Notes: generated by a model not told the origin, from the sequence alone. A stretch of 64,000 bases of DNA from a virus (IMGVR_UViG_3300012933_000236:1-64000), one strand, 5' to 3'; counted from the first letter of the stretch, positions 219 through 36,754 are shown. Program-made: numbers and translations.

Positions 219-330
219 TGAAGCTGGAAGGACTTGAACCTCCGACTCGCCTAGTGCATATTTATCTAGAAAATGTAAACACTATCGACAGTAACCTGCC
301 CAATGACTCTACCAACTGAGTTACAGCTTC
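219..330 (-). tRNA. tRNA-like element: perfect 7-bp acceptor stem (GAAGCTG/CAGCTTC), canonical D-arm and T-arm, but a ~40-nt insertion where the anticodon/variable region should be (disrupted or unconventional tRNA)
   Basis: Reverse complement reads GAAGCTG-TA-ACTC-AGTTGGTA-GAGT ... GGAGG-TTCAAGT-CCTTC-CAGCTTC-A. No 5+7+5 anticodon arm could be folded. Confidence 0.3.
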
Positions 331-335
331 ATATC

Positions 336-410
336 TGGTACGGCGTAGTGGAATCGAACCACTATTGAATGCTTAGAAGGCACTTGCACTATCCATTGTA
401 CTAACGCCGT
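336..410 (-). tRNA. tRNA-Arg(TCT): tRNA-Arg (anticodon TCT)
   Basis: Reverse complement: acceptor ACGGCGT/ACGCCGT, D-arm GTAC-AATGGATA-GTGC, anticodon stem AGTGC/GCATT with loop CTTCTAA (U33, A37), T-arm AGTGG-TTCGATT-CCACT, discriminator A, encoded CCA. Confidence 0.75.
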
Positions 411-4775: not shown

Positions 4776-5807
4776 TTATTCATTTTTGAGTAACCAAGAA
4801 TTTGAAATTGACTTAAAGCTGCGGTCATGCACACTGTTGCTCTTGAACACAACACCTTCACGATTACTGCCGTTAAGTAAAGACTTACCTTCTGCGTATT
4901 CCAAAATACTTTGAATCGTTTGTTCTTTAATCTCAGTGGCTTCTACAATGATAGGCACATGCTTTAACCCAAGCTTTTCACACGCTGCTTTAAGCTGTAC
5001 AGGCAAGATGTATTCTCCTGTGTGGGTATTGTACATGTCGTAAACGTAGAAGTCAAGCTGTACTTTGTACTGATTACCTTGAATACCTTCACCGATCATT
5101 TCACCTTGAATTGCCATACGTACCATAAAATTTCTACGCATGATACCTTCAATATCAAACTTACGTGCTACTTTCCAGAATGAATTTGCTTCATCTTCTT
5201 TCAGGTCTAAGTTACGTGAGCATACGTGGAATACACCTTCGTCATCAAGATAGAAAGTACAAGATGAACCATCAAGTTTTTCTGTGATTGACCACGTATC
5301 AAGCTGATATTGCTCAAAAGATCGTGTCAAGTTCTGAATACGCTCTTGATCAGTCTTCGGTACAAGCGCAGGAAAATTACCTCGTGCCATACCAGCGAGT
5401 TGAGCATTCATTGGGCGTTCCCACTTGATGATACCAAGAATATCACTTACATCTGATCCTTCGAATTCATCAGGAGCTACCCAAACAGCAACCCTTACTT
5501 CTGTAACAACAGATAAGGGTAATAACAAACCTTGTGAGATTTGACCACGTAGTTTTACTGTACGTAGGCGTTCACCTTTTACACCTTCAAATTCACGAGG
5601 CTCTTTACCTTTAGATAGGAATGCAGCTAGTTCTGTTGGAACCCAAGAGTCAATCTCTAGGTATACAGCAAGTGAATCAACTGCAAATTCACCCTTCTTT
5701 ACTACAACTTTCCAGCCATCAACTACAGCGACTTCAATAGCGTCTGCACCTTCAATGGGTTCAATTGCTGCGATTTTACGAATAGTTGCTAATTTACGTT
5801 CTGTCAT
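4776..5807 (-). CDS. ATP-dependent RNA ligase-like protein (DRB0094/Rnl-type N-terminus, KxDG nucleotidyltransferase motif)
   Basis: 343 aa. N-terminus MTERKLATIRKIAAIEPIEGADAIEVAVVDGWKVVVKKGEF is typical of the DRB0094 RNA ligase family. Motif I is ITEKLDGSS. Confidence 0.55.
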   Translation of the reverse strand: MTERKLATIRKIAAIEPIEGADAIEVAVVDGWKVVVKKGEFAVDSLAVYLEIDSWVPTELAAFLSKGKEPREFEGVKGERLRTVKLRGQISQGLLLPLSVVTEVRVAVWVAPDEFEGSDVSDILGIIKWERPMNAQLAGMARGNFPALVPKTDQERIQNLTRSFEQYQLDTWSITEKLDGSSCTFYLDDEGVFHVCSRNLDLKEDEANSFWKVARKFDIEGIMRRNFMVRMAIQGEMIGEGIQGNQYKVQLDFYVYDMYNTHTGEYILPVQLKAACEKLGLKHVPIIVEATEIKEQTIQSILEYAEGKSLLNGSNREGVVFKSNSVHDRSFKSISNSWLLKNE

Positions 5808-9884: not shown

Positions 9885-10682
9885 TTACTTAACGTTAATC
9901 ATTCCCTTGAAGTCCATTGGTACAACAATCGTATTCACACGACCTGCTGCAATGCCTTCTGCAATCTTCATTTGTGCCTGTGCTTGCATATAAGCAATTG
10001 ACTGACCAGAGTTAGAACTTAGTGCAGCCATGCGCTCAGATTCTTTCTTAGCGATATCAACTTCAGTTTGCTTAATCTTTAGTTCATTTTGAGCACGAAC
10101 ATAGTTTGTAGCAGACTGCAAAATTTCAGCGTTAGGTAGAATGTTACGCACTTGCACTACCGTCAATGATACAGAATTGTCCAGCTTTTCAGCTTTGAGT
10201 TGTTCGTGTACTGTATCACGAATTTGCTCTTCAATCTTAGCACGATTGTCTGCAATTTCAAGTGATTTATACTGACGAATAACTTTGTAACTTGCATTAT
10301 TGACCAATGTTGACATGTACGAATACATCAAGAAGATATCACCTTTTTCTTCAGCGTGAAAGCTACGACTCTTAGTTGAGTACAGTTCAGCAACTGAAGT
10401 AGGATTCAAACCGTAGACAACTGTAATATCGAAGTCTGCAAGAGCACTATTGTCTGCAGTCATTGGTGTTTTATTGTCAAGAGTAACAGAGATATCTTTT
10501 GTAGGAAATGTAAGTACAGAACCAATCATTGTCTGATTCCATGAACCGGGAGGTAGCTCAGAACCTTCGATTTGCTTTGATGCGTTGACTCGTACACCAA
10601 CTTCACCAGTTTCAATGCGAGTGCAACCTACAGATGCAAGTGCAACAACTACAGCAAGAACAACACTTTTAATAAATTTCAT
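9885..10682 (-). CDS. SPFH/band-7 (stomatin/prohibitin-like) domain lipoprotein
   Basis: Real start is MKFIKSVVLAVVVALASVGC (signal peptide plus lipobox) with RBS AGGAG. TGEVGVRV opens an SPFH-like domain, followed by a C-terminal coiled coil. The upstream part of the listed ORF is not coding. Confidence 0.6.
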   Translation of the reverse strand: MKFIKSVVLAVVVALASVGCTRIETGEVGVRVNASKQIEGSELPPGSWNQTMIGSVLTFPTKDISVTLDNKTPMTADNSALADFDITVVYGLNPTSVAELYSTKSRSFHAEEKGDIFLMYSYMSTLVNNASYKVIRQYKSLEIADNRAKIEEQIRDTVHEQLKAEKLDNSVSLTVVQVRNILPNAEILQSATNYVRAQNELKIKQTEVDIAKKESERMAALSSNSGQSIAYMQAQAQMKIAEGIAAGRVNTIVVPMDFKGMINVK

Positions 10683-10696
10683 AAATACTCCTTTGA

Positions 10697-10873
10697 TTAA
10701 AACAAAATAACAATTGCAGTCAGAATTGACAATGCAATGAACCCGAAGAACAGCAAGTATAGCACAGTTTTCACCGCTTTCCACTTTGCAGATGCATCTG
10801 ACTCTTTAAAAAAGAAAAATACTCCTGCTACAATCAGTGTTACTAATGATAGCACAAAAATTAGTTTGATCAT
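10697..10873 (-). CDS. small hydrophobic membrane protein (58 aa, two TM helices)
   Basis: MIKLIFVLSLVTLIVAGVFFFFKESDASAKWKAVKTVLYLLFFGFIALSILTAIVILF. ATGA overlap with the upstream gene; not in the ORF track (<60 aa). Confidence 0.45.
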   Translation of the reverse strand: MIKLIFVLSLVTLIVAGVFFFFKESDASAKWKAVKTVLYLLFFGFIALSILTAIVILF

Positions 10874-12868: not shown

Positions 12869-13294
12869 ATGCTACTCAAAACTGAATTTCATCACATGGT
12901 CAACCATCTAGGTCTAGAAGACGGTGAACTGGCACTAGCTGAAATCGTGTGGGAGAAAGCGGAGCGAGCAATGCAAGGTAAACCTGTGCAAGAAGCTAAG
13001 TTGCTAAAGAGCGATACTTTTACTCGTAGCACTGATAAGTATGCATTGACTCAAGCTGAACTGCAATCTCTCACTGTAGGTTTAGCATATGTGCTTACAC
13101 ACGAACAAGAAGTATTGCAGAACTTGAAGCATCGAATTGATAACTGCTGGCGCAAAAGTGAACCTGACAATGCAGATACAGAAGTGCATTTCACACGAAT
13201 GAATGAACTACGAAATCATCAGCGTAAGATCAAGAAAGATCACGCAAAGCTTTCAGTCATCCAATATAAACTCAAACGCCAACAAGGTAAATAA
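12869..13294 (+). CDS. hypothetical early protein
   Basis: Start moved to MLLKTEFHH after a GGAAAC RBS; 141 aa. Confidence 0.5.
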   Translation: MLLKTEFHHMVNHLGLEDGELALAEIVWEKAERAMQGKPVQEAKLLKSDTFTRSTDKYALTQAELQSLTVGLAYVLTHEQEVLQNLKHRIDNCWRKSEPDNADTEVHFTRMNELRNHQRKIKKDHAKLSVIQYKLKRQQGK

Positions 13295-13638
13295 TGACAC
13301 GTAAACGCTATGAAATCATCGCTACAGCCTTCGATAAGAAAGGTAAGGTGCTAGGTACAGGAGTTAATGATTACAACCGCAGTCATCCACTTATGAAGCA
13401 TTTTGCTGTGCAAGCTGGAGAGTCAGAGCAAAAAGATAAAGTCCACGCTGAACTATCTGCTGTACTGGCATCTGGTCGTAAAAATATTCATAGCGTTTTC
13501 GTTCAGCGGTTTCACAACGATGGTTCAATGGCTACTGCTAAACCATGCATGACTTGCCAAGCTATGCTCAAAGGCTTTGGTGTTAAACTTGTTCGTTATA
13601 CATCTGAAGAAGGAATTAAAGAATATGAAGTTTTATAA
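13294..13638 (+). CDS. small cytidine/dCMP-deaminase-fold (CDA) zinc-dependent deaminase, TadA-like motifs
   Basis: 114 aa. VHAELSAV (H[AC]E) and PCMTCQAM (PCxxC) are separated by about 30 aa. Confidence 0.6.
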   Translation: MTRKRYEIIATAFDKKGKVLGTGVNDYNRSHPLMKHFAVQAGESEQKDKVHAELSAVLASGRKNIHSVFVQRFHNDGSMATAKPCMTCQAMLKGFGVKLVRYTSEEGIKEYEVL

Positions 13639-13882
13639 TCCGTTTAAACCGCACATCGTGCAGCTTTCTAATGGTAAATATGCTGTGCGTAGATGGTCTT
13701 TGCTTGCATGGGAATACAAAGAAAGTTGGACACTTCCGGGTACTGATTATTATTGGTGGAATTCTATGGAACATGTTCAGAAATGGTGTACAGTTAAATC
13801 TCTTGAAGAAGCTAAAGCATTATGTGGTGAGTCCAAATCTAAACTTAAACCTATGAAAGTGGTAAAGGTAATTCATGGCTAA
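13625..13882 (+). CDS. hypothetical protein
   Basis: Likely start MKFYNPFKP, overlapping the upstream gene end. Confidence 0.45.
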   Translation: MKFYNPFKPHIVQLSNGKYAVRRWSLLAWEYKESWTLPGTDYYWWNSMEHVQKWCTVKSLEEAKALCGESKSKLKPMKVVKVIHG

Positions 13883-14387
13883 TCAAAAAGACCTTGATGC
13901 AACATACATGGGTACTGCCATATTGCACAGCAAGTTATCTAAGGCCATTAGAGCACAGGTAGGAGCGATTCTAGTGACTAGGCAAGGTGTCACCCTCACT
14001 GGTTACAATGGGACTGCTGTAGATCGTCCTAATGAATGCGAAGATCGTATTTATCCAAATGAATACGCTGGTGATTTTCAACAACACTATGATGAATTTG
14101 ATGCTGCATTTCCATTTGTGGATTCTCGTGGGTATTACTGTAAGTTAGTTACAAAACCAGAAGTGATTCATGCAGAACTTAACTGCATTATGAAAGCTGC
14201 TCGTGAAGGTGTAAGTTGCGTAGATGCTACTGTTTATGTTACACTAGCACCTTGTGTACAGTGCGCTGCTATGATGCTACAAGCTGGTGTCAAGCGCGTG
14301 GTATATCTGCAACAGTACAGAGATGATTCTGGTGTAAAGCTGCTGCAGGAATCAAATGTAGTGGTACAATTGTACGATCAACTTTAA
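13875..14387 (+). CDS. dCMP deaminase (deoxycytidylate deaminase)
   Basis: 170 aa. VIHAELNCI and LAPCVQCAAMMLQAGVKRVVY match the ComEB/T4 Cd pattern. Confidence 0.85.
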   Translation: MANQKDLDATYMGTAILHSKLSKAIRAQVGAILVTRQGVTLTGYNGTAVDRPNECEDRIYPNEYAGDFQQHYDEFDAAFPFVDSRGYYCKLVTKPEVIHAELNCIMKAAREGVSCVDATVYVTLAPCVQCAAMMLQAGVKRVVYLQQYRDDSGVKLLQESNVVVQLYDQL

Positions 14388-14398
14388 GGAGAACTAAC

Positions 14399-14683
14399 AT
14401 GGCATTGAAAGATCAAAAAGACGTATTGATTGCTTGGATTAACGGTGAAGATATTCAACTTAAAATTGGGGATACATGGCACAACTGTAGTAAGTTTGCT
14501 GAATGTAATTCAATTGGTATTTCTGATGGTCAATACCGCATCAAACCAAAAGAAATTGTGACTACCACGTATATTAAATTTGAATTTGATATTCACCCAA
14601 CTTATACTTGTGTTCATCCTCACAATCTTCGTCTAACATGGTCGCCAGATGGTGAAACACTATTGAAAGCAGAGGTTATCTAA
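14399..14683 (+). CDS. hypothetical protein
   Basis: 94-aa ORF, RBS AAGGAG. Confidence 0.5.
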   Translation: MALKDQKDVLIAWINGEDIQLKIGDTWHNCSKFAECNSIGISDGQYRIKPKEIVTTTYIKFEFDIHPTYTCVHPHNLRLTWSPDGETLLKAEVI

Positions 14684-14967
14684 TGAAAACATATAACGCA
14701 GCAGTAGTTGTAGAATCAGAGGTAACGATTCGCATTAACCCTAACGTAAATACGAATACACTGATCGAAGAGTTCAGCGAATGCATGTACGGCGCAGACA
14801 CTATTGGTGATCTTATACAGTATGCTTGTATGTGTATTGCAAGACATGAGCCTACGTTTCTTGAAGGTATTGGTCGTATAGAATACGATTACGGTCAAGG
14901 ATGGGGAGATGATGTTGTAATGCTTTACACTATTAGCACTGATGTATCAACAGAGATTGTAGACTAA
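14683..14967 (+). CDS. hypothetical protein
   Basis: 94-aa ORF, ATGA coupling. Confidence 0.5.
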   Translation: MKTYNAAVVVESEVTIRINPNVNTNTLIEEFSECMYGADTIGDLIQYACMCIARHEPTFLEGIGRIEYDYGQGWGDDVVMLYTISTDVSTEIVD

Positions 14968-15176
14968 TGCTGCGCTGGTCAGGTACAATCTTCTACATGA
15001 TCGGTATGCTGCTGACTGCACTAAATATTTTTCCTTTGAATCTAATATTTGGTGCAATCGGTGGTACACTCTGGTGCATCGTAGGCTTTAACTACAAAGA
15101 CAAAGCCTTGATTTTAGTGGAGGCTGCATCTGCAGCTATCTATTTGTTTGGACTTTTACATTGGTGGATAAAATGA
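14967..15176 (+). CDS. small membrane protein
   Basis: 69 aa, two hydrophobic helices. Confidence 0.45.
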   Translation: MLRWSGTIFYMIGMLLTALNIFPLNLIFGAIGGTLWCIVGFNYKDKALILVEAASAAIYLFGLLHWWIK

Positions 15177-15376
15177 ATGAAAACATTGACAGGCTTGCCA
15201 TTGAGTGCTATCAGGCTCCTGAATTTGACTACAAAAAGTTTGCACAATTAATCATCAAAGAATATGAACAATTTCTTCCAGAGTATTGTCCTTGGTCTAA
15301 TGCAGATGAAAGTGGTCCAATGAAAGGTTGGCATGCTGCATTTGTTGCACGTAAACATTTTGGAGTTGAAGAATGA
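15161..15376 (+). CDS. hypothetical protein
   Basis: 71-aa ORF. Confidence 0.45.
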   Translation: MVDKMNENIDRLAIECYQAPEFDYKKFAQLIIKEYEQFLPEYCPWSNADESGPMKGWHAAFVARKHFGVEE

Positions 15377-15549
15377 CAGTAGCAGAGTTGATTAAACAAT
15401 TAAAGAAACTACCGCAGAATATCTCGGTAAGCGTTAATGACGAATCTAACGGCATTTTTCACGAGGTTGTTGAAGCAGTATTCGACATGCCCGAATCTGC
15501 CGATGGTTTTGACAAGGCTTGTGTAATCTTAGTAGTAAATGGAGTATGA
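15373..15549 (+). CDS. small hypothetical protein (58 aa)
   Basis: ATGA overlap; MTVAELIKQLKKLPQNISVSVNDESNG...; below the ORF-track cutoff. Confidence 0.35.
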   Translation: MTVAELIKQLKKLPQNISVSVNDESNGIFHEVVEAVFDMPESADGFDKACVILVVNGV

Positions 15550-15550
15550 A

Positions 15551-15727
15551 ATGACAGCAATTGAAGCATTACACATCGTTCTTGAACGAGCGCAGTATCT
15601 ACGTAGTGAAGGTGAATCAGACATGCGAAGTATCATTTACTTAGCTAGTGCTTTAATCCGAGATATTGAAGCTGGTAAATCAACTGAAGAAATTATGCAA
15701 GATTTTAATGAAGATGAAGATGAATAA
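15551..15727 (+). CDS. small acidic hypothetical protein
   Basis: MTAIEALHIVLERAQYL..., RBS GGAG. Confidence 0.4.
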   Translation: MTAIEALHIVLERAQYLRSEGESDMRSIIYLASALIRDIEAGKSTEEIMQDFNEDEDE

Positions 15728-15944
15728 TTGTCGTGCATACCCAACACAAAATTTCGAATACGATGGTCAGGGTAATGTTCTTCATTGGCAACATGAAGGT
15801 ATGAGTTTGCTTGATCATTTTGCAGGTCTAGCAATGCAAGCTTGTCTCGCACGAGGTGATGATAGTAATCGTCCCGGTATTGCTGAATGGTCTTATACAA
15901 TGGCAGAAGCTATGTTAAAAGAAAGAGCTAAGTATGAACGATAA
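15720..15944 (+). CDS. hypothetical protein
   Basis: Start moved to MNNCRAYPTQ; 74 aa. Confidence 0.4.
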   Translation: MNNCRAYPTQNFEYDGQGNVLHWQHEGMSLLDHFAGLAMQACLARGDDSNRPGIAEWSYTMAEAMLKERAKYER

Positions 15945-16051
15945 GATTGAAGAACTTATTACACAACCAATGGAAATTAAGTTGATGTTATCTGAAATAC
16001 TAAATGAATTAAAGTTAATTAATACATACCTAAACCAAATATTGGAAATAA

Positions 16052-16453
16052 ATGAATAAACCTACTTTATACTTAATCCGTGGAGTTCCCGGCGCAGGTA
16101 AATCAACCTTTGCTTGGCAACTATTTAAAAATCATTTAGTACAACGCATGTATGAAGCTGATGACTATTTTACAAATGCAGGTGAATATCAGTTTGACCC
16201 TACTCAACTTGAGCAAGCGCATCGGCAATGCAAACGCAATACATGGCTGGCGCTGTATGAAGGTATGTCAGTTGCTGTATCAAATACATCTTGTGCTGAG
16301 TGGGAAGTTGAAACTTATGCTACAATTGCACGAGAGACTGAAGCTAACTTTGTGAGTATCATTGTTGAGAACAGGCACGAAGGTAAAAATATTCACGGTT
16401 GCCCTGATGCTAAAGTCGAACAAATGAAACGAAAGTTTAGTGTAAAATTATAA
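16052..16453 (+). CDS. P-loop kinase (AAA_33/zeta-toxin-like fold; candidate polynucleotide or nucleotide kinase)
   Basis: 133 aa with N-terminal LIRGVPGAGKSTFA Walker A. Confidence 0.6.
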   Translation: MNKPTLYLIRGVPGAGKSTFAWQLFKNHLVQRMYEADDYFTNAGEYQFDPTQLEQAHRQCKRNTWLALYEGMSVAVSNTSCAEWEVETYATIARETEANFVSIIVENRHEGKNIHGCPDAKVEQMKRKFSVKL

Positions 16454-16462
16454 AGGAATGAT

Positions 16463-16747
16463 GTGATTGAATTAATTATTTATATGGCTGGTGTGATTAT
16501 CATGATGATTGCGTTCGCTATTCGCACTTCAAATACAGATATTACATCTGCTGTTATCCTTTCTATTTTTTGGCCATTGTCCATTTTAACCATGATAATC
16601 ATTAAGAGTTTATGGACTATTAATTGGGATATTCATGTTGTTGGAGTTAATGAATACTTCGGTTATCGTAAACCAAATAATTCTGAAGTAAAAGGTTTTG
16701 CAGTTACAATATTTAAACTTGAATTTCAATTTTGGAAAAGGAATTAA
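16463..16747 (+). CDS. small membrane protein
   Basis: 94 aa, two TM segments. Confidence 0.45.
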   Translation: MIELIIYMAGVIIMMIAFAIRTSNTDITSAVILSIFWPLSILTMIIIKSLWTINWDIHVVGVNEYFGYRKPNNSEVKGFAVTIFKLEFQFWKRN

Positions 16748-16749
16748 AG

Positions 16750-17625
16750 ATGCTATTAACATATGATGAACAGATGAATTTAGTTAATCGTGGATTAGCT
16801 ACATTTAGAAACGATGGTAAATATACTACGTTTAAATACGCTCGTAAGGCAATGTATGAGTATCTTTGGAATAAAGTACCTGCATTGTGTGAATCTCGTG
16901 GTCACGTATACTGTAATAACACAAAAGAACTAGTGCAAGCTGCACCACGTAAAAGCTTTAATTATCTTGAGCGCAATTACTGGAGTGATGTACCATTGGA
17001 TACTCCAGTTGAAATGCACAAGAAAGTCAATGGTTATATGGCTTGTGCTACACTACACAATGACGAACTTCTGGTTAGTACTACAGGTACAACTACAAGC
17101 GAATACGCTCAGTGGGCCAAAGAATTAATTGTTCGTGATTACAATCTATATGACTTGGTGATTGAATCAGAGGTTACTACGTTATTCGAAGTTGTAGTAA
17201 CTCAAGACCCACACATTGTGCAAGAGCGTAAAGGTTTGCACTTGCTCGGTGTACGTGAGAAAGCTAATGGTAATTTTCATCCTATGGGTGGAAGTATGCG
17301 TTGTACTCTAGAGCAAGCACTAGAAATCGCAAAGCATGATCGTGGTGAAGGTTTTATGATGTATCTGCTTTCTGATGGTGTTTATGATTATAACAACTGC
17401 TGTAAACTAAAGACTCCATACTACGTTGGTAAAAAGAAATTGATGCGTATGACAGCAAAGAATGTTGAAATCATGTATAATAACCTACCGCACACAATCA
17501 GTACATTACCTGAGATGTGGCATGAGGTTCCTGAGCAGATTGTACAAAGCGTCCATAAAGACACATGGTTAGCTATGAACGATCAACAACGCAGGGTAAT
17601 TCTTGAAGATTTAAATGGAGTTTAA
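16750..17625 (+). CDS. putative nucleotidyltransferase of the ligase superfamily (RNA ligase-like; KxNG motif)
   Basis: Start at MLLTYDEQ after AAGGA. HKKVNGYMAC (motif I KxNG, as in tRNA ligases), TLFEVVV, GEGFMMY, and LKTPYYVGKKK (motif V KxK). Confidence 0.4.
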   Translation: MLLTYDEQMNLVNRGLATFRNDGKYTTFKYARKAMYEYLWNKVPALCESRGHVYCNNTKELVQAAPRKSFNYLERNYWSDVPLDTPVEMHKKVNGYMACATLHNDELLVSTTGTTTSEYAQWAKELIVRDYNLYDLVIESEVTTLFEVVVTQDPHIVQERKGLHLLGVREKANGNFHPMGGSMRCTLEQALEIAKHDRGEGFMMYLLSDGVYDYNNCCKLKTPYYVGKKKLMRMTAKNVEIMYNNLPHTISTLPEMWHEVPEQIVQSVHKDTWLAMNDQQRRVILEDLNGV

Positions 17626-17627
17626 TT

Positions 17628-17960
17628 ATGACTAAGAAACTTGTAAAAAATTATCTTTATGAATTAAGTTTGTATGGTACGTTTGATGGTCAAACCATTG
17701 ATGAAGTAGTTACCAACTTAAGTGCAATAAAACAAAATTATCCAGAATCTAAACTTATTTTAGATGTATCCTATGGTGGATATGATGATGGATATTCAAT
17801 TAATTTACTTGAAGAACGTCTAGAGACTGATAAAGAATACAAAGAACGCCTAGACTCTGAAGAAAAAGAAAGACAATCTAAAGCTAAAGCCAAGGCTAAA
17901 GCTGAAGAAAAAGATCGTCAAGAGTATGAACGTCTAAAGAAAAAGTTTGAAGGAGTATAA
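17628..17960 (+). CDS. hypothetical protein with KE-rich C-terminus
   Basis: 110-aa ORF. Confidence 0.5.
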   Translation: MTKKLVKNYLYELSLYGTFDGQTIDEVVTNLSAIKQNYPESKLILDVSYGGYDDGYSINLLEERLETDKEYKERLDSEEKERQSKAKAKAKAEEKDRQEYERLKKKFEGV

Positions 17961-18122
17961 TTATGCGAAAGTTCAGTGAAGTTCTAGAAGAGTATTTAGA
18001 TTTACGTGATCGTCTTAATGGTGACTATTTCGATAATCGTCCAATTTATAGCCGAGGAATTGCACGAGAGGATTTTGTGAATTTAGCTGATGAATTAGAT
18101 CAGATCGTAGCGAAAGTACAAA

Positions 18123-18311
18123 GTGCAGGGGCATAACTTTAACCGTACATTACATGCCAAAGGTATGTTTGTGTATTGTAACAACTGTGGACTTATTCGT
18201 TTGAATAATCGTGCTACTGAAAAGCAGGTTAATAAGCCTTGCGTTGGATTACGAGAGCTAGAAGACGAAGAGTATTTAAAAATCAAAGGACAAATGAAAG
18301 GTAGAAAATGA
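18123..18311 (+). CDS. small Zn-ribbon-like protein
   Basis: 62 aa with CNNCG...C. Confidence 0.35.
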   Translation: MQGHNFNRTLHAKGMFVYCNNCGLIRLNNRATEKQVNKPCVGLRELEDEEYLKIKGQMKGRK

Positions 18312-18877
18312 AAATATTTACAAGTGATCTACACCACATGCATAATCGCATTGTTGAATTTACAAATAGAGGTGCTGATACAACTCAAGAAAATCACACC
18401 GATTGGTTAACTGAAGTATGGAACAACAATGTAACTTCTGGTGATCTTGTATATCATCTAGGAGATTTCTCTTTTGCTAAAAAGTACGATGATATTGCAA
18501 AGTTTACCTTTCACTTGAACGGTCAAAAGATTTTCATCAAAGGTAATCATGATAAGCGTGAAAACTTAGATCAACTCGTGAAAGACAATCTAATTCAAGC
18601 ATGGTATGATTACAAAGAGATGAAAGTGCAAGAGATTCCTACTGTGCTATTTCACTTTCCTATCTCAAGTTGGCATCGTCAAGGTCATGGTGCATTTCAT
18701 CTACATGGTCATTGTCATGGAAATCACAAAGATAATAAAGGTAAAATGCTTGACATCGGCTTAGATTTCGCATACAATGTATTTGGAGAGCACAGATTCT
18801 TTACAGAAGATGACATTGTGCAGCTACTAAAAGACAAGGAAACTCATATTTCAGATCACCACAAAGAAAGATTATAA
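18308..18877 (+). CDS. calcineurin-like metallophosphoesterase
   Basis: 189 aa with DLHHMH, LGDFS, and GNHD motifs. Confidence 0.8.
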   Translation: MKIFTSDLHHMHNRIVEFTNRGADTTQENHTDWLTEVWNNNVTSGDLVYHLGDFSFAKKYDDIAKFTFHLNGQKIFIKGNHDKRENLDQLVKDNLIQAWYDYKEMKVQEIPTVLFHFPISSWHRQGHGAFHLHGHCHGNHKDNKGKMLDIGLDFAYNVFGEHRFFTEDDIVQLLKDKETHISDHHKERL

Positions 18878-19546
18878 ATGCAAAAGATTGAAGATTACAC
18901 CACCGCAAAGCTAATTGCTTACTCACAGGCTACAGAAGAGTTTAAAGGGCAGTTTAAGACCATTAAAGACCTTGTAGCATACTGCGCTAGGGTAAGTAAC
19001 CCAAGCAACCAACTCAACATGGAAACCTCTGATAAACTCATTAGTTATCTACTGAAGCACAAGCATTTTAGTCCATTTGAAATGGCTAGTGCAACTATTG
19101 AAGTTGAAACAACTCGTGACATTGCTCGTCAGCTATTACGTCATCGTAGTTTTACATTTCAGGAGTTTAGCCAGCGTTATGCAGACCCTACAAAGGATTT
19201 GACGTTTGTAACTCGTGAAGCACGACTGCAAGACCCTAAGAATCGTCAGAACTCTGTTATTACTGAAAATCTTGCATTGCAATCGCTATGGGAGAACTAT
19301 CAGAACAAAGTAATTCAGACTGCACAAGATGCGTATGCTTTTGCTATTGCTAACGGTATCGCCAAAGAGCAAGCTCGTGCTGTACTACCAGAAGGTTGCA
19401 CAATGTCTCGTTTATATGTTCAAGGAACTATCCGTAGTTTTATTCACTACATTGAAGTGCGTAAGACTAATGGTACACAACTAGAACACGTTGTATTGGC
19501 ACAAAAAGCTGCAGAAGCTATCTCAAAGGTTTTCAATGTTGAATGA
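18878..19546 (+). CDS. thyX: flavin-dependent thymidylate synthase ThyX
   Basis: 222 aa. RHRSFTFQEFSQRY matches the ThyX RHR-x7-S signature. Confidence 0.9.
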   Translation: MQKIEDYTTAKLIAYSQATEEFKGQFKTIKDLVAYCARVSNPSNQLNMETSDKLISYLLKHKHFSPFEMASATIEVETTRDIARQLLRHRSFTFQEFSQRYADPTKDLTFVTREARLQDPKNRQNSVITENLALQSLWENYQNKVIQTAQDAYAFAIANGIAKEQARAVLPEGCTMSRLYVQGTIRSFIHYIEVRKTNGTQLEHVVLAQKAAEAISKVFNVE

Positions 19547-32687: not shown

Positions 32688-33401
32688 TTATTTAGAATTA
32701 TCTTCTTTGAGCAGTTGCTTTAGACTTTTAGCTTCAGCTTTAGCTCTTTTCTCTTGCATTTGACTTCTGATCTCTAACCTTCGAATAATCTCTTCAGCAT
32801 CAAACCACATCTCTTTACCCATAATGACTTCTTCAAGTTCTTTATCGGTTAAAAAGTCCCTGTATACACTGTGCATCAATACTCTGACTTGCTTATCTAC
32901 GAATGAAGCGTGAGAAATAACATCAGACTGCTTACCAAAAGCTCCAAACGTAGCAGAGTGAACCATCATTGTAGCGTAAGGCGATACACTAATACTTGGT
33001 GATGCTAGTGCAATAAGAGAAGCCGCTGATGCAGCTACACCATCAATCTCAGCATGTACGTCAGCATCTGTATTCTCAATAGCGTTAATAATTGCGATTG
33101 CACCATCAAGTTGACCACCGTAGCTATTAATCTTCATGAGTACAACATCACCTTCACCCAAGGATTCGATACCTTGTAGCACTGTGCGATAATATTTAGC
33201 TTCTCTGATATTTTCATCTAAAGGAATCTTAATGCAGCGATTAGTCTTTGTACTTTCAAAATAAGGTAAGTATTGTGGATTGCTTCTGATATTTACTTCA
33301 CCTTCGTCATCATCGTCATCATTACGAGCTACTTTGATCTTAAAATTCTTGTAATTACTTACGTTTTGCTGAAAAATCTTTTTATGATTTTGATTTTGCA
33401 T
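32688..33401 (-). CDS. ClpP-like serine protease (S14 family)
   Basis: 237 aa. INSYGGQLDGAIAIINAI, GVAASAASLIALA (Ser nucleophile region) and MVHSATFG (His). Confidence 0.75.
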   Translation of the reverse strand: MQNQNHKKIFQQNVSNYKNFKIKVARNDDDDDEGEVNIRSNPQYLPYFESTKTNRCIKIPLDENIREAKYYRTVLQGIESLGEGDVVLMKINSYGGQLDGAIAIINAIENTDADVHAEIDGVAASAASLIALASPSISVSPYATMMVHSATFGAFGKQSDVISHASFVDKQVRVLMHSVYRDFLTDKELEEVIMGKEMWFDAEEIIRRLEIRSQMQEKRAKAEAKSLKQLLKEDNSK

Positions 33402-34164
33402 TGGTTACTCCTTTAGTATTAAATTGATCAGTTACACTAGACTTAGTAAATTCAGCTTCAATCTCGTCTTCAAAAGCAATTACGAACTCTTTAGTCAAAC
33501 CACTACGAACTACGTGCTCTCTACTGAAGGTAGTAAAGCTACAATCATTGATATTGTACTTCTGGCAAATCTTCTCTAAGTACGTTAGTCCATCCATACC
33601 TTTTTTAACATCAGTTTGTGGACCTGTGTTATCACCACAAAAGATAATTTGAGAGTCATTACCTACACGAGTAGTTAGTGCTTGAATCTCCGGTACAAAT
33701 AAATTCTGACTTTCATCTACAATAATGATGCTGTCATTCCAGCTTCTACCTCTAATAGTTTCCAAGCTACAAATCTCAATTGTTTTATTCTTAAGGTGAA
33801 TCTCTGTAGTTGCTTTACCTAGATAATCCTCAAAGTAGTCAATCATTTGCTGATAAAACGGAAGTAACTTCTCTTCTGCAGTACCCGGAAGAAAACCAAT
33901 ACTTCTACCAGCTAAAGGTTGGTACGCACGAATCAATACAACTTTCTTGATGTCACCGTAATGCAATTTCTTAGCTGCATGATGAATAGCTAACAAAGTT
34001 TTACCAGTACCTGCACTACCACGAGCTACAACTAAAGTATTATACTTTAAAGCTTCCAGTAATTCACTCTGTTTGTCATTCATTGCATGTAATACAGGAA
34101 ACTGACTACGTTGGAACTTCTCTTTTTGTACACGTTGTGATTGCACTTTTTGATTTCTTTTCAT
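33382..34164 (-). CDS. phoH: PhoH-like ATPase
   Basis: 260 aa. ARGSAGTGKTLLAIHHA Walker A, IIVDESQN Walker B. Confidence 0.85.
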   Translation of the reverse strand: MKRNQKVQSQRVQKEKFQRSQFPVLHAMNDKQSELLEALKYNTLVVARGSAGTGKTLLAIHHAAKKLHYGDIKKVVLIRAYQPLAGRSIGFLPGTAEEKLLPFYQQMIDYFEDYLGKATTEIHLKNKTIEICSLETIRGRSWNDSIIIVDESQNLFVPEIQALTTRVGNDSQIIFCGDNTGPQTDVKKGMDGLTYLEKICQKYNINDCSFTTFSREHVVRSGLTKEFVIAFEDEIEAEFTKSSVTDQFNTKGVTNAKSKS

Positions 34165-36186: not shown

Positions 36187-36261
36187 GCTGGAATAGCTCA
36201 TCTGGTAGAGCAACGGTTTTGTACTCCGTAGAGGTGGGTTCGAGTCCTACTTCTAGCACCA
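36187..36261 (+). tRNA. tRNA-Thr(TGT): tRNA-Thr (anticodon TGT)
   Basis: GCTGGAA acceptor, TAGCTCATCTGGTAGAGC D-arm, anticodon loop TTTGTAC, T-arm GTGGG-TTCGAGT-CCTAC, encoded CCA. Confidence 0.75.
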
Positions 36262-36268
36262 AATTTAA

Positions 36269-36343
36269 GCTACTATCGTCTATCGGTTAGGACATCTGGT
36301 TTTCATCCAGACAAGCGGAGTTCGATTCTCCGTAGTAGCTCCA
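36269..36343 (+). tRNA. tRNA-Glu(TTC): tRNA-Glu (anticodon TTC)
   Basis: GCTACTA/TAGTAGC acceptor, anticodon arm TCTGG-TTTTCAT-CCAGA, T-arm CGGAG-TTCGATT-CTCCG, CCA. Confidence 0.75.
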
Positions 36344-36512
36344 GTATTTACTAAAGTCCAGTGGGTCAAATCCCCGTCCTCTGAGTATTGCCCAATGCTT
36401 GGCGGTGGTGTAGAGAAACACATTAGTATTTACGTGTAATCCGCAACTACGTTAAAAGTTCGGCTGCTCAATCGCCAACGGAAAGAGCATAAGGTTACAG
36501 TTGGATAAATTT

Positions 36513-36587
36513 TGGCATATAGCTCAGAGGTAGAGCAAACGGCTGTTAACCGTTCGGTCTGTGGTTCGATCCCACATTTGCCAGCCA
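36513..36587 (+). tRNA. tRNA-Asn(GTT): tRNA-Asn (anticodon GTT)
   Basis: D-arm GCTCAGAGGTAGAGC, anticodon arm AACGG-CTGTTAA-CCGTT, T-arm TGTGG-TTCGATC-CCACA, CCA. One T-T mismatch in the acceptor stem. Confidence 0.65.
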
Positions 36588-36593
36588 ATCAAT

Positions 36594-36671
36594 CTATATA
36601 TAGGCTAGTCTGGTTAAGTCACCTGATTTGGGGTCAGGAAGTCGGTGGTTCGAATCCATCTATATAGACCA
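36594..36671 (+). tRNA. tRNA-Pro(TGG): tRNA-Pro (anticodon TGG)
   Basis: CTATATA/TATATAG acceptor, anticodon arm CCTGA-TTTGGGG-TCAGG, T-arm GGTGG-TTCGAAT-CCATC, CCA. Confidence 0.7.
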
Positions 36672-36678
36672 TATATTT

Positions 36679-36754
36679 ATATCTCTAGCTCAACTGGCAG
36701 AGCAACGGATTCCAAATCCGTAGGTTGTAGGTTCGATTCCTACGGGGTATGCCA
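36679..36754 (+). tRNA. tRNA-Trp(CCA): tRNA-Trp (anticodon CCA)
   Basis: D-arm GCTCAACTGGCAGAGC, anticodon arm ACGGA-TTCCAAA-TCCGT, T-arm GTAGG-TTCGATT-CCTAC, CCA. Acceptor has two G-U pairs. Confidence 0.7.

Follow-up and report, generated by a model that had tools for sequence, protein, structure and literature searches.

A predicted split system for the healing and sealing of broken RNA in a freshwater phage

Does the phage from which IMGVR_UViG_3300012933_000236:1-64000 derives carry its own machinery for mending broken RNA? This 64,000-nucleotide stretch (here called the window) belongs to a 77,197-bp contig of a freshwater metagenomic phage, and a preliminary description of its sequence had picked out a P-loop kinase, a ligase-type nucleotidyltransferase and a metallophosphoesterase between positions 16,052 and 18,877, together with a DRB0094-type ligase at 4776, as a distributed RNA repair toolkit. 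All four family assignments held in our analysis, and we consider it likely, if short of certain, that the genes encode a split system by which the ends of broken RNA (probably tRNA) are healed and sealed. The evidence lies in protein families and folds, in intact catalytic residues, in gene fusions and in genomic linkage, and it concerns the following genes.

16052..16453, plus strand: P-loop kinase of 133 amino acids (aa), predicted RNA/polynucleotide 5'-OH kinase (AAA_33, PHROG 2071/505)
16750..17625 (alternative TTG start at 16732), plus strand: Rnl1-family ATP-dependent RNA ligase, 291 aa (RNA_lig_T4_1, PHROG 562)
18308..18877, plus strand: binuclear metallophosphoesterase of the aq_1665 clade, 189 aa (PHROG 547, motifs)
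4776..5807, minus strand: Rnl5 (DRB0094/NgrRnl-type) RNA ligase, 343 aa, in the replication block

The ligase at 16750 scored 34.3 bits against the Pfam RNA_lig_T4_1 hidden Markov model (HMM; PF09511, cut-off 28.3) and matched PHROG 562 with an E value of 2.7e-37. In an hhalign comparison spanning T4 residues 30-249 only, it aligned with T4 Rnl1 at 98.6% (E = 7.5e-16), and the nucleotidyltransferase fold presupposed by the preliminary description was found in its Rnl1-type form, with Trl1 ligase domains as the second-best structural match. The lysine of the HKKVNGYM sequence (K92) sits on the T4 nucleophile K99 within motif I (K92-V-N-G95), and the K-x-K of motif V is K219/K221. Altogether, R50, K68, F70, K92, and G95 align with T4 Rnl1 R54, K75, F77, K99, and G102, and E147, E200, G201, K219, and K221 align with E159, E227, G228, K240, and K242; across 47 sequences, the catalytic residues (motifs I, III, IV, and V, plus R50, K68, and F70) vary little or not at all. 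As regards the C-terminal tRNA-specificity domain of T4 Rnl1, the window ligase has a short helical stretch at its own C terminus, residues 223-288. Judged by these sequence features, the protein would be expected to become adenylylated and to seal RNA.

The 133-aa protein at 16052 matched AAA_33 in Pfam (E = 8.8e-10) and two PHROGs, 2071 (E = 9e-36) and 505, "polynucleotide kinase" (E = 2.9e-8). When a profile built from 26 relatives was compared with the PDB, the best matches included 9d8a, which is a stand-alone tRNA-splicing RNA 5'-OH kinase from Mucorales (PMC11571804), T4 Pnk (1ly1/1ltq), Pnkp1 (4xrp), mammalian PNKP, and the kinase domain of CthPnkp (4jst), with weaker matches to unrelated P-loop proteins besides. 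The top match was 9drz, an entry deposited only as a P-loop NTPase that looks similar to 9d8a; the solved structures closest to the kinase are polynucleotide or RNA 5'-OH kinases. The protein aligned with T4 Pnkp in hhalign (96.4%, E = 1.3e-9) with the two P-loops in register. Invariant in its family are the P-loop G11-x-x-G14-x-G16-K17-S18 and D37, which aligns with the general base of T4 Pnk, D35; the Mucorales kinase cannot do without its counterpart of this residue, Asp36 (PMC11571804). We predict from these similarities, with indirect support from the fusions to RNA ligases described below, that the protein is an RNA/polynucleotide 5'-OH kinase.

The phosphoesterase matched PHROG 547, "phosphoesterase" (E = 2e-40), and has the fold and all five metal-binding motifs of the binuclear metallophosphoesterase superfamily, aq_1665 clade (D7-x-H9, G52-D53, G79-N80-H81, H116, and G134-H135-x-H137), each of them invariant in 25 relatives. 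It is solely the genomic linkage described below that suggests a role as a 2',3'-cyclic-phosphate/3'-phosphate end-healing enzyme. The second ligase passed the NCBIfam equivalog HMM TIGR02306, RNA_lig_DRB0094 (198.8 bits, cut-off 151.15), and consists of an N-terminal OB domain (PF21189, PHA02142; E = 1.8e-30) and an RNA_ligase domain (PF09414; E = 4.6e-29). The profile matches anticipated in the preliminary description were obtained for RNA_lig_T4_1, RNA_ligase, and AAA_33, but not for the phosphoesterase, which has no Pfam match.

Gene fusions and conserved neighborhoods connect these proteins. An exhaustive search with the Rnl1-type ligase returned 1086 relatives, among them a 420-aa kinase-ligase fusion (P0450, metagenomic) and a 477-aa ligase-kinase fusion (P0433), the kinase domains of which belong to the window kinase subfamily (hhalign 99.9%, E = 5e-31, 39-40% identity over the whole domain). 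Distant homologues of the ligase form the C-terminal domain of metagenomic proteins of 726-767 aa that also contain AAA_33 and Metallophos domains (P0474, P0477, P0484, P0497, and P0503). The kinase and phosphatase parts of these larger fusions resemble bacterial Pnkp (TIGR04075 positions 1-323) and belong to subfamilies other than those of the window proteins, and their ligase domain is Rnl1-like, not the usual Pnkp ligase. No specific kinship was found between the window phosphoesterase and their Metallophos domain, and a scan of GTDB representative genomes with P0474 gave one marginal match and no close relative.

Eighty IMG/VR loci carrying a ligase homologue (28-87% identity) were retrieved with a 16-sequence ligase alignment and scanned with local HMMs up to 8 kb from the ligase. 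Both the window-type kinase and the phosphoesterase were present in 50, the kinase only in 9, the phosphoesterase only in 17, and neither in 4 (59 loci with this kinase and 67 with the phosphoesterase overall); at the median, the kinase lies 4 bp and the phosphoesterase 397 bp from the ligase, and eight loci without the window-type kinase have a second, Pnkp-like AAA_33 kinase. To dereplicate the set, ligases were clustered at 60% identity, giving 18 clusters, of which 16 have a phosphoesterase, 16 a kinase, and 15 both. With K for the kinase, L for the Rnl1-like ligase, M for the phosphoesterase, and R5 for Rnl5, the gene orders among clusters include K-L-M, M-L-K, M-K|L, and L..K..M, and this shuffling indicates selection for linkage rather than inherited synteny. 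Among cultured phages, an INPHARED tblastn search found the ligase in 614 records and the kinase in 622, with nearly matching counts by host genus (ligase/kinase: Escherichia, 199/198; Pseudomonas, 175/173; Klebsiella, 36/36; Acinetobacter, 24/24; Campylobacter, 23/23). All three genes are neighbors in rV5 (gp076-078), Otagovirus M5.1 (gp29-33), and Pakpunavirus EM (gp28-34), and many GenBank records already bear the names RNA ligase, polynucleotide kinase, or phosphoesterase.

In the window, Rnl5 lies between the primase-helicase and DNA ligase genes, 11 kb from the other toolkit genes. Elsewhere its homologues adjoin the rest of the set directly, in the order K-L-M-R5 in L034 and R5-M-L in L066-L069 and L075, and they are also close to the phosphoesterase and Rnl1-like ligase in L062 and L073. 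The earlier inclusion of this enzyme in the kit is supported by its adjacency to both genes in other phages. The grouping of the genes is far beyond chance in these comparative data. By their fusions, their neighborhoods in uncultured phages, and their distribution in cultured ones, the kinase and the Rnl1-type ligase are functionally linked; the phosphoesterase and Rnl5 are probably linked to this pair as well.

How might such a system work? First, the phosphoesterase would open or remove a 2',3'-cyclic phosphate to leave a ligatable 3'-OH, a reaction for which the metallophosphoesterase domain of bacterial Pnkp offers a proven precedent in the healing of RNA 2',3'-phosphates (PMC2190708, PMC3675462). 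The kinase, the family and catalytic residues of which are as described above, would then phosphorylate the 5'-OH of the same presumed substrate, and the Rnl1-type ligase, adenylylated on K92, would, like T4 Rnl1 and fungal Trl1, join the 3'-OH to the 5'-phosphate within a single-stranded loop. Going by the specificity of its family, the Rnl5-type ligase would probably seal 3'-OH/5'-phosphate nicks in duplex RNA such as stems; nicks of this kind can be sealed without prior healing, and Toprim nucleases, which cut tRNA in its stems, are one source of them (PMC12445682). Host or phage tRNAs cut during infection by host anticodon nucleases would be the likeliest natural substrates of the system, and by analogy with T4 Pnkp and Rnl1 acting against PrrC, the system may serve as a counter-defence against tRNA-cleaving nucleases.

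Several points weigh against such an RNA repair system. No measured activity was found in the literature searched for the kinase, ligase, or phosphoesterase subfamily, and no host anticodon nuclease is known for the window phage. Two residues important in T4 are replaced: the essential K119 of Rnl1 becomes Thr112, within an invariant T-T-G of the ligase family, and R38 of Pnk, which contacts the substrate phosphate, becomes a nearly invariant Phe40. Nucleotide-metabolism genes surround the toolkit, with a dCMP deaminase gene upstream and ThyX abutting the phosphoesterase. As for the phosphoesterase itself, no member of the aq_1665-type clade has a known substrate, and its nearest folds are generic phosphodiesterases and nucleases. 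Its family occurs in 1476 phage records, 2.4 times as many as the 614 of the ligase. Many of these have neither ligase nor kinase, among them Herelleviridae and phages of Staphylococcus, Enterococcus, Listeria, and Bacillus. Seven close relatives of the window keep the kinase and ligase with no phosphoesterase found in the fetched flanks, and in six of these a Macro-domain gene follows the ligase ahead of ThyX, in the slot that the phosphoesterase holds in the window.

The wide spread of the phosphoesterase family and its absence from the fetched flanks of the seven relatives would suit a reading in which the kinase and ligase are a true RNA repair pair and the phosphoesterase is an independent gene that merely lies in the same early region, for example a cyclic-nucleotide or Ap4A phosphodiesterase, an anti-signalling enzyme, or a processor of ADP-ribose-cyclic-phosphate by-products; Iyer et al. 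suggest that calcineurin-like enzymes may process ADPr>P (PMC9503650), and the Macro domain in the six relatives is Poa1p-like. We regard this as unlikely, without discounting it. Of the 67 loci with a phosphoesterase, 56 have it within 1 kb of the ligase, its open reading frame (ORF) overlaps that of the ligase in L066-L069 and L075, where no kinase is detectable, and it accompanies 16 of the 18 ligase lineages. Metallophosphoesterases heal RNA 2',3'-phosphates in bacterial Pnkp (PMC2190708, PMC3675462), and no other 3'-healing candidate (HAD, 2H, or HD) was found among the approximately 50 window ORFs scanned; nor did that scan, which many small ORFs fell outside, bring up Hen1, KptA/Tpt1, or Sir2.

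The Poa1p-like Macro-domain gene recurs near the ligase (L022, 9259-9753, and L025, L026, and L028-L030; L004, 8151-8627, and L042-L054). It was considered as a strict replacement of the phosphoesterase, and this was ruled out, as both genes are present in 13 IMG/VR loci and phage EM, and both stand near the ligase in Pakpuna- and Otago-like loci. NAD/ADP-ribose-linked end processing has been proposed by Iyer et al. (PMC9503650), and the Macro genes near the ligase hint at it in some lineages. NAD-salvage genes (nicotinate phosphoribosyltransferase and PRPP synthetase) flank the module in EM and M5.1. In an uncultured phage, the Rnl5-phosphoesterase-Rnl1 cluster is followed, approximately 850 bp further downstream, by a gene for an Rv2179c-like 3'-5' exoribonuclease (L067, 9792-10391), and in Enterococcus phage 113 an annotated 3'-5' exoribonuclease gene (L006, 3878-4408) adjoins two phosphoesterase paralogues; such an enzyme is a possible further RNA-end-processing partner of the aq_1665-type clade.

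It is less probable still that the genes belong to a nucleotide-metabolism or DNA-end-processing block, in which the kinase would phosphorylate nucleosides, nucleotides, or DNA 5' ends, the phosphoesterase would act as a nucleotidase or as a DNA 3'-phosphatase/nuclease, and the ligases would serve DNA replication or repair, for instance by sealing RNA-primed or host-nuclease nicks. T4 Pnkp acts on DNA too, the fold neighbors of the phosphoesterase include MPE nuclease and Mre11/SbcD, and kinase homologues are labeled "uridine kinase" and similar in source databases. The setting also fits, with the dCMP deaminase gene at 13875, ThyX at 18878 abutting the phosphoesterase, and Rnl5 flanked by the primase-helicase and DNA ligase. 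However, fusions of the kinase with Rnl1-type RNA ligases exist in both domain orders, the Rnl1 fold marks an RNA-specific ligase clade, and a 133-aa kinase is, to read from its length, too short to hold the separate nucleotide-binding and lid domains of nucleotide kinases. ThyX is linked in 15 of the 80 loci only, all within the clade of the window, whereas the links of the ligase with the phosphoesterase and kinase extend over 15 to 16 of the 18 lineages. That the ligase serves virion assembly in the manner of T4 gp63 in tail-fibre attachment, and not RNA repair in vivo, is scarcely credible: PHROG 562 and many GenBank records are indeed labeled "RNA ligase and tail fiber protein attachment catalyst," but this name is inherited from T4, and the gene lies in an early, non-structural block 20 kb from the structural genes, encodes a protein whose catalytic residues are all invariant, and is coupled or fused to a kinase. 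The tail genes of the phage are of the siphovirus type.

The phage also carries tRNA genes. Seven had been counted in the preliminary description; six are canonical by ARAGORN, and the seventh, added by Rfam, proved to be aberrant.

336..410, minus strand: tRNA-Arg(UCU) (ARAGORN and Rfam)
36187..36754, plus strand: cluster of five tRNA genes, Thr(UGU), Glu(UUC), Asn(GUU), Pro(UGG), and Trp(CCA) (ARAGORN and Rfam)
219..330, minus strand: aberrant tRNA-like gene of 112 nt (Rfam tRNA, 41.7 bits; ARAGORN negative)

The tRNA genes may be linked to the RNA repair toolkit as replacements for cleaved tRNAs, and codon compensation explains them equally well: the G+C content of the window is 37%, and hosts of the Limnohabitans type are more GC rich than the phage.

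The tRNA-like gene at 219-330 and its relatives are the most unusual thing near the toolkit. The gene lies 5 nt downstream of tRNA-Arg(UCU) and has perfect acceptor, D, and T arms; 18 model positions, those of the anticodon arm plus the first position of the variable loop, are replaced by 58 nt, approximately 40 nt of them extra, and this insert contains an invariant hairpin, GGCAG-GUUA-CUGUC, and a second hairpin. In other phage contigs, a pattern scan found similar tRNA-like genes whose anticodon arm is either too large or replaced, with canonical tRNAs predicted by ARAGORN nearby, often adjacent. In one group (group A: L087, L090, L093, L095, and L100), the second hairpin is of variable length, with covariation in its stem; in the other (group B: L088 and L096-L099), the acceptor stem covaries at 3 pairs and the anticodon arm is replaced by a long bulged stem that is conserved at its base and variable at its tip. 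An Rnl5-type ligase gene lies 2.4-6 kb from the tRNA-like genes in both groups. A simple anticodon-loop intron was rejected as it stands, given the contradictory results of the ARAGORN intron mode between orthologues, and a class II tRNA with a long variable arm does not fit group A, since the second hairpin lies 8-9 nt away from the T stem. By analogy with eukaryal tRNA splicing, which uses a kinase, a phosphodiesterase, and a Trl1-type ligase, one might imagine that the kit also matures this transcript by protein-catalyzed cutting and rejoining, and we think this very improbable; alternatively, the tRNA-like RNA could serve as a decoy, drawing off nucleases aimed at the anticodon arm.

What kind of phage carries these genes? 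The nearest isolate is Limnohabitans phage DC31 (76 kb), with 83% nucleotide identity across the toolkit region. DC31 is long tailed (203 nm), has a G+C content of 37.6%, 6 tRNAs, and an intergenomic similarity of <35% to any phage, and the paper describing it makes no mention of an RNA ligase (PMC12195039); the toolkit genes, whose orthologues in DC31 are ORFs 59, 62, and 63 of PQ492658, are annotated as hypothetical in this lineage. The preliminary description had called the phage a lambda-like siphovirus, which does not agree with the 77,197-bp contig, the family-A DNA polymerase and primase-helicase, or the long-tailed DC31 as nearest isolate; the phage is therefore not lambda-like. DC31 (L001/PQ492658) is filed in GenBank as a Pakpunavirus, a genus of approximately 90-kb Pseudomonas phages. 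No tail sheath match was obtained among the scanned DC31 ORFs, and the label probably reflects shared early genes such as the kinase-ligase-phosphoesterase module. The surroundings of the toolkit in the window are as follows.

Minus strand: replication block with family-A DNA polymerase, primase-helicase, Rnl5 ligase, ATP-dependent DNA ligase, and HNH endonuclease
From approximately 12.8 kb, plus strand: long block of small early-type genes
13875: dCMP deaminase, 170 aa, upstream of the kinase
16463-16747, plus strand: hydrophobic ORF, 94 aa, between kinase and ligase
18123..18311, plus strand: 62-aa ORF between ligase and phosphoesterase (PHROG 7020, E = 6e-6)
18878: ThyX, abutting the phosphoesterase
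From 37.5 kb: siphovirus-type structural genes (large terminase, portal, and major capsid protein)

Homologues of the 94-aa insert were found only in L011, L013, and L020, and the kinase and ligase genes overlap in most relatives. A homologue of the 62-aa ORF comes after the ligase in most of the 26 close-clade loci that carry one; since homologues were not found in distant lineages, its membership in the module is uncertain. A scan for promoters and terminators over 12.4-20.2 kb yielded sites no more numerous than in shuffles. Elsewhere in the window, a 114-aa ORF with a cytidine/deoxycytidylate-deaminase fold (13294-13638, plus strand) precedes the 170-aa dCMP deaminase by approximately 240 bp, an SPFH/Band-7 protein is encoded within the replication block (9885-10784, minus strand), a ClpP/NfeD-like protease and a PhoH-like ATPase form a pair just before the tRNA cluster (32688-33401 and 33382-34164, both minus strand), and a 1845-aa ORF among the structural genes is read, from its size and position, as the tape-measure protein.

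Is such a module surprising in this phage? The preliminary description had held that it was not to be expected there, which is contradicted by ligase and kinase orthologues in more than 600 cultured phage genomes and by the RNA repair already predicted for the rV5-type neighborhood (PMC9503650). With orthologues in rV5-, Pakpuna-, and Otagovirus-like phages and the prediction of Iyer et al. in 2022, the module is an unannotated case of a known phage RNA repair module. The observation of the genes is confirmed and the earlier interpretation partly supported. The gain is incremental, because phage RNA repair as a counter-defence is established and this type of neighborhood had already been predicted computationally; the interest lies in the breadth of the module and in the orphan phosphoesterase clade more than in surprise. 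Should RNA repair prove to be the function, compact split systems (a mini 5'-kinase, an Rnl1-like ligase, an aq_1665-type phosphoesterase, and often Rnl5) would be far commoner in phages than T4 Pnkp/Rnl1 and would extend to abundant freshwater phages of Limnohabitans-type hosts, in which the genes are now annotated as hypothetical. The aq_1665 metallophosphoesterase clade, which is structurally solved, would gain its first function, and the cutting of tRNA or other RNA would look to be a common defence among freshwater Betaproteobacteria.

Among known systems, the rV5-type neighborhood consists of a T4-like tRNA ligase, a nucleotide kinase, and an occasional calcineurin-like phosphoesterase (PMC9503650). 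The rV5 genes gp076 (phosphoesterase), gp077 ("ATPase"), and gp078 (RNA ligase 1) are orthologous to those of the window, with local HMM E values of 1e-33, 6e-88, and 3e-29 for the kinase, ligase, and phosphoesterase, respectively. In a phmmer search of rV5 proteins against all window ORFs of at least 50 aa, the Sir2, cREC, and MazG partners were not found at E < 0.01, and the window likewise lacks homologues of rV5 gp079, of M5.1 gp30, gp32, and gp34, and of the EM Macro protein; it thus differs from the rV5, Pakpuna, and Otago neighborhoods in being without their Sir2, cREC, MazG, and Macro genes and from rV5 in having an extra ligase, Rnl5. Unlike the rV5-type phages, which are myoviruses of 90-150 kb, the window phage is a 77-kb long-tailed freshwater phage.

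Mucorales encode a stand-alone tRNA-splicing RNA ligase and RNA 5'-OH kinase (PMC10946426, PMC11571804), and the window resembles these enzymes and fungal Trl1 in having a separately encoded small predicted RNA 5'-OH kinase and a ligase of the Rnl1/Trl1 clade. In contrast, fungi heal 3' ends with a 2H cyclic phosphodiesterase, and their Trl1 needs a 2'-phosphate, which Tpt1 takes off the junction; neither a 2H enzyme nor Tpt1 was found among the window ORFs scanned. Clostridium thermocellum Pnkp/Hen1 shares the same three chemistries with a metallophosphoesterase as the healer of 2',3'-phosphates, and distant homologues of the window ligase occur, as described above, in single kinase-Metallophos-ligase polypeptides. 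The joint working of kinase, 3'-end phosphoesterase, and ligase proposed in the preliminary description is strongly backed by the kinase-ligase fusions and by the shuffled neighborhoods of 15 of the 18 lineages, but the Pnkp/Hen1-type membership suggested with it is ruled out: the window has three separate ORFs with other ORFs between them instead of one polypeptide, its phosphoesterase is of the aq_1665 and not the lambda-phosphatase type, its ligase is of the Rnl1 and not the Rnl4 type, neither kinase, ligase, nor phosphoesterase matches TIGR04075, and no Hen1-like protein was found among the window ORFs scanned against Pfam and PHROGs, with many small ORFs outside that scan.

T4 Pnkp (pseT) and Rnl1 (rnlA) provide the other comparison. 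The window shares with them an Rnl1-family ligase with the same active-site residues and fold, a P-loop polynucleotide-kinase-type 5' kinase with the same general-base Asp, and the order of the genes: in T4, cd (dCMP deaminase), pseT, and rnlA lie within 5 kb on one strand (L101, T4 131000-139500), and in the window the dCMP deaminase, kinase, and ligase genes follow in the same order within 4 kb (13875-17625). A dCMP deaminase gene is also nearby in M5.1 and in the L022 and L029 relatives. Unlike T4, in which 3' healing is carried out by a HAD-type DxDxT phosphatase fused to the kinase, the window has a separate binuclear metallophosphoesterase; its ligase is 83 aa shorter (291 versus 374 aa) and aligns only with T4 residues 30-249, Rnl1 K119 and Pnk R38 are not conserved, and an Rnl5-type enzyme stands as second ligase where T4 has Rnl2. 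The system as predicted would work like T4 Pnkp/Rnl1 and like bacterial Pnkp, and at the level of the whole system it is a member of neither.

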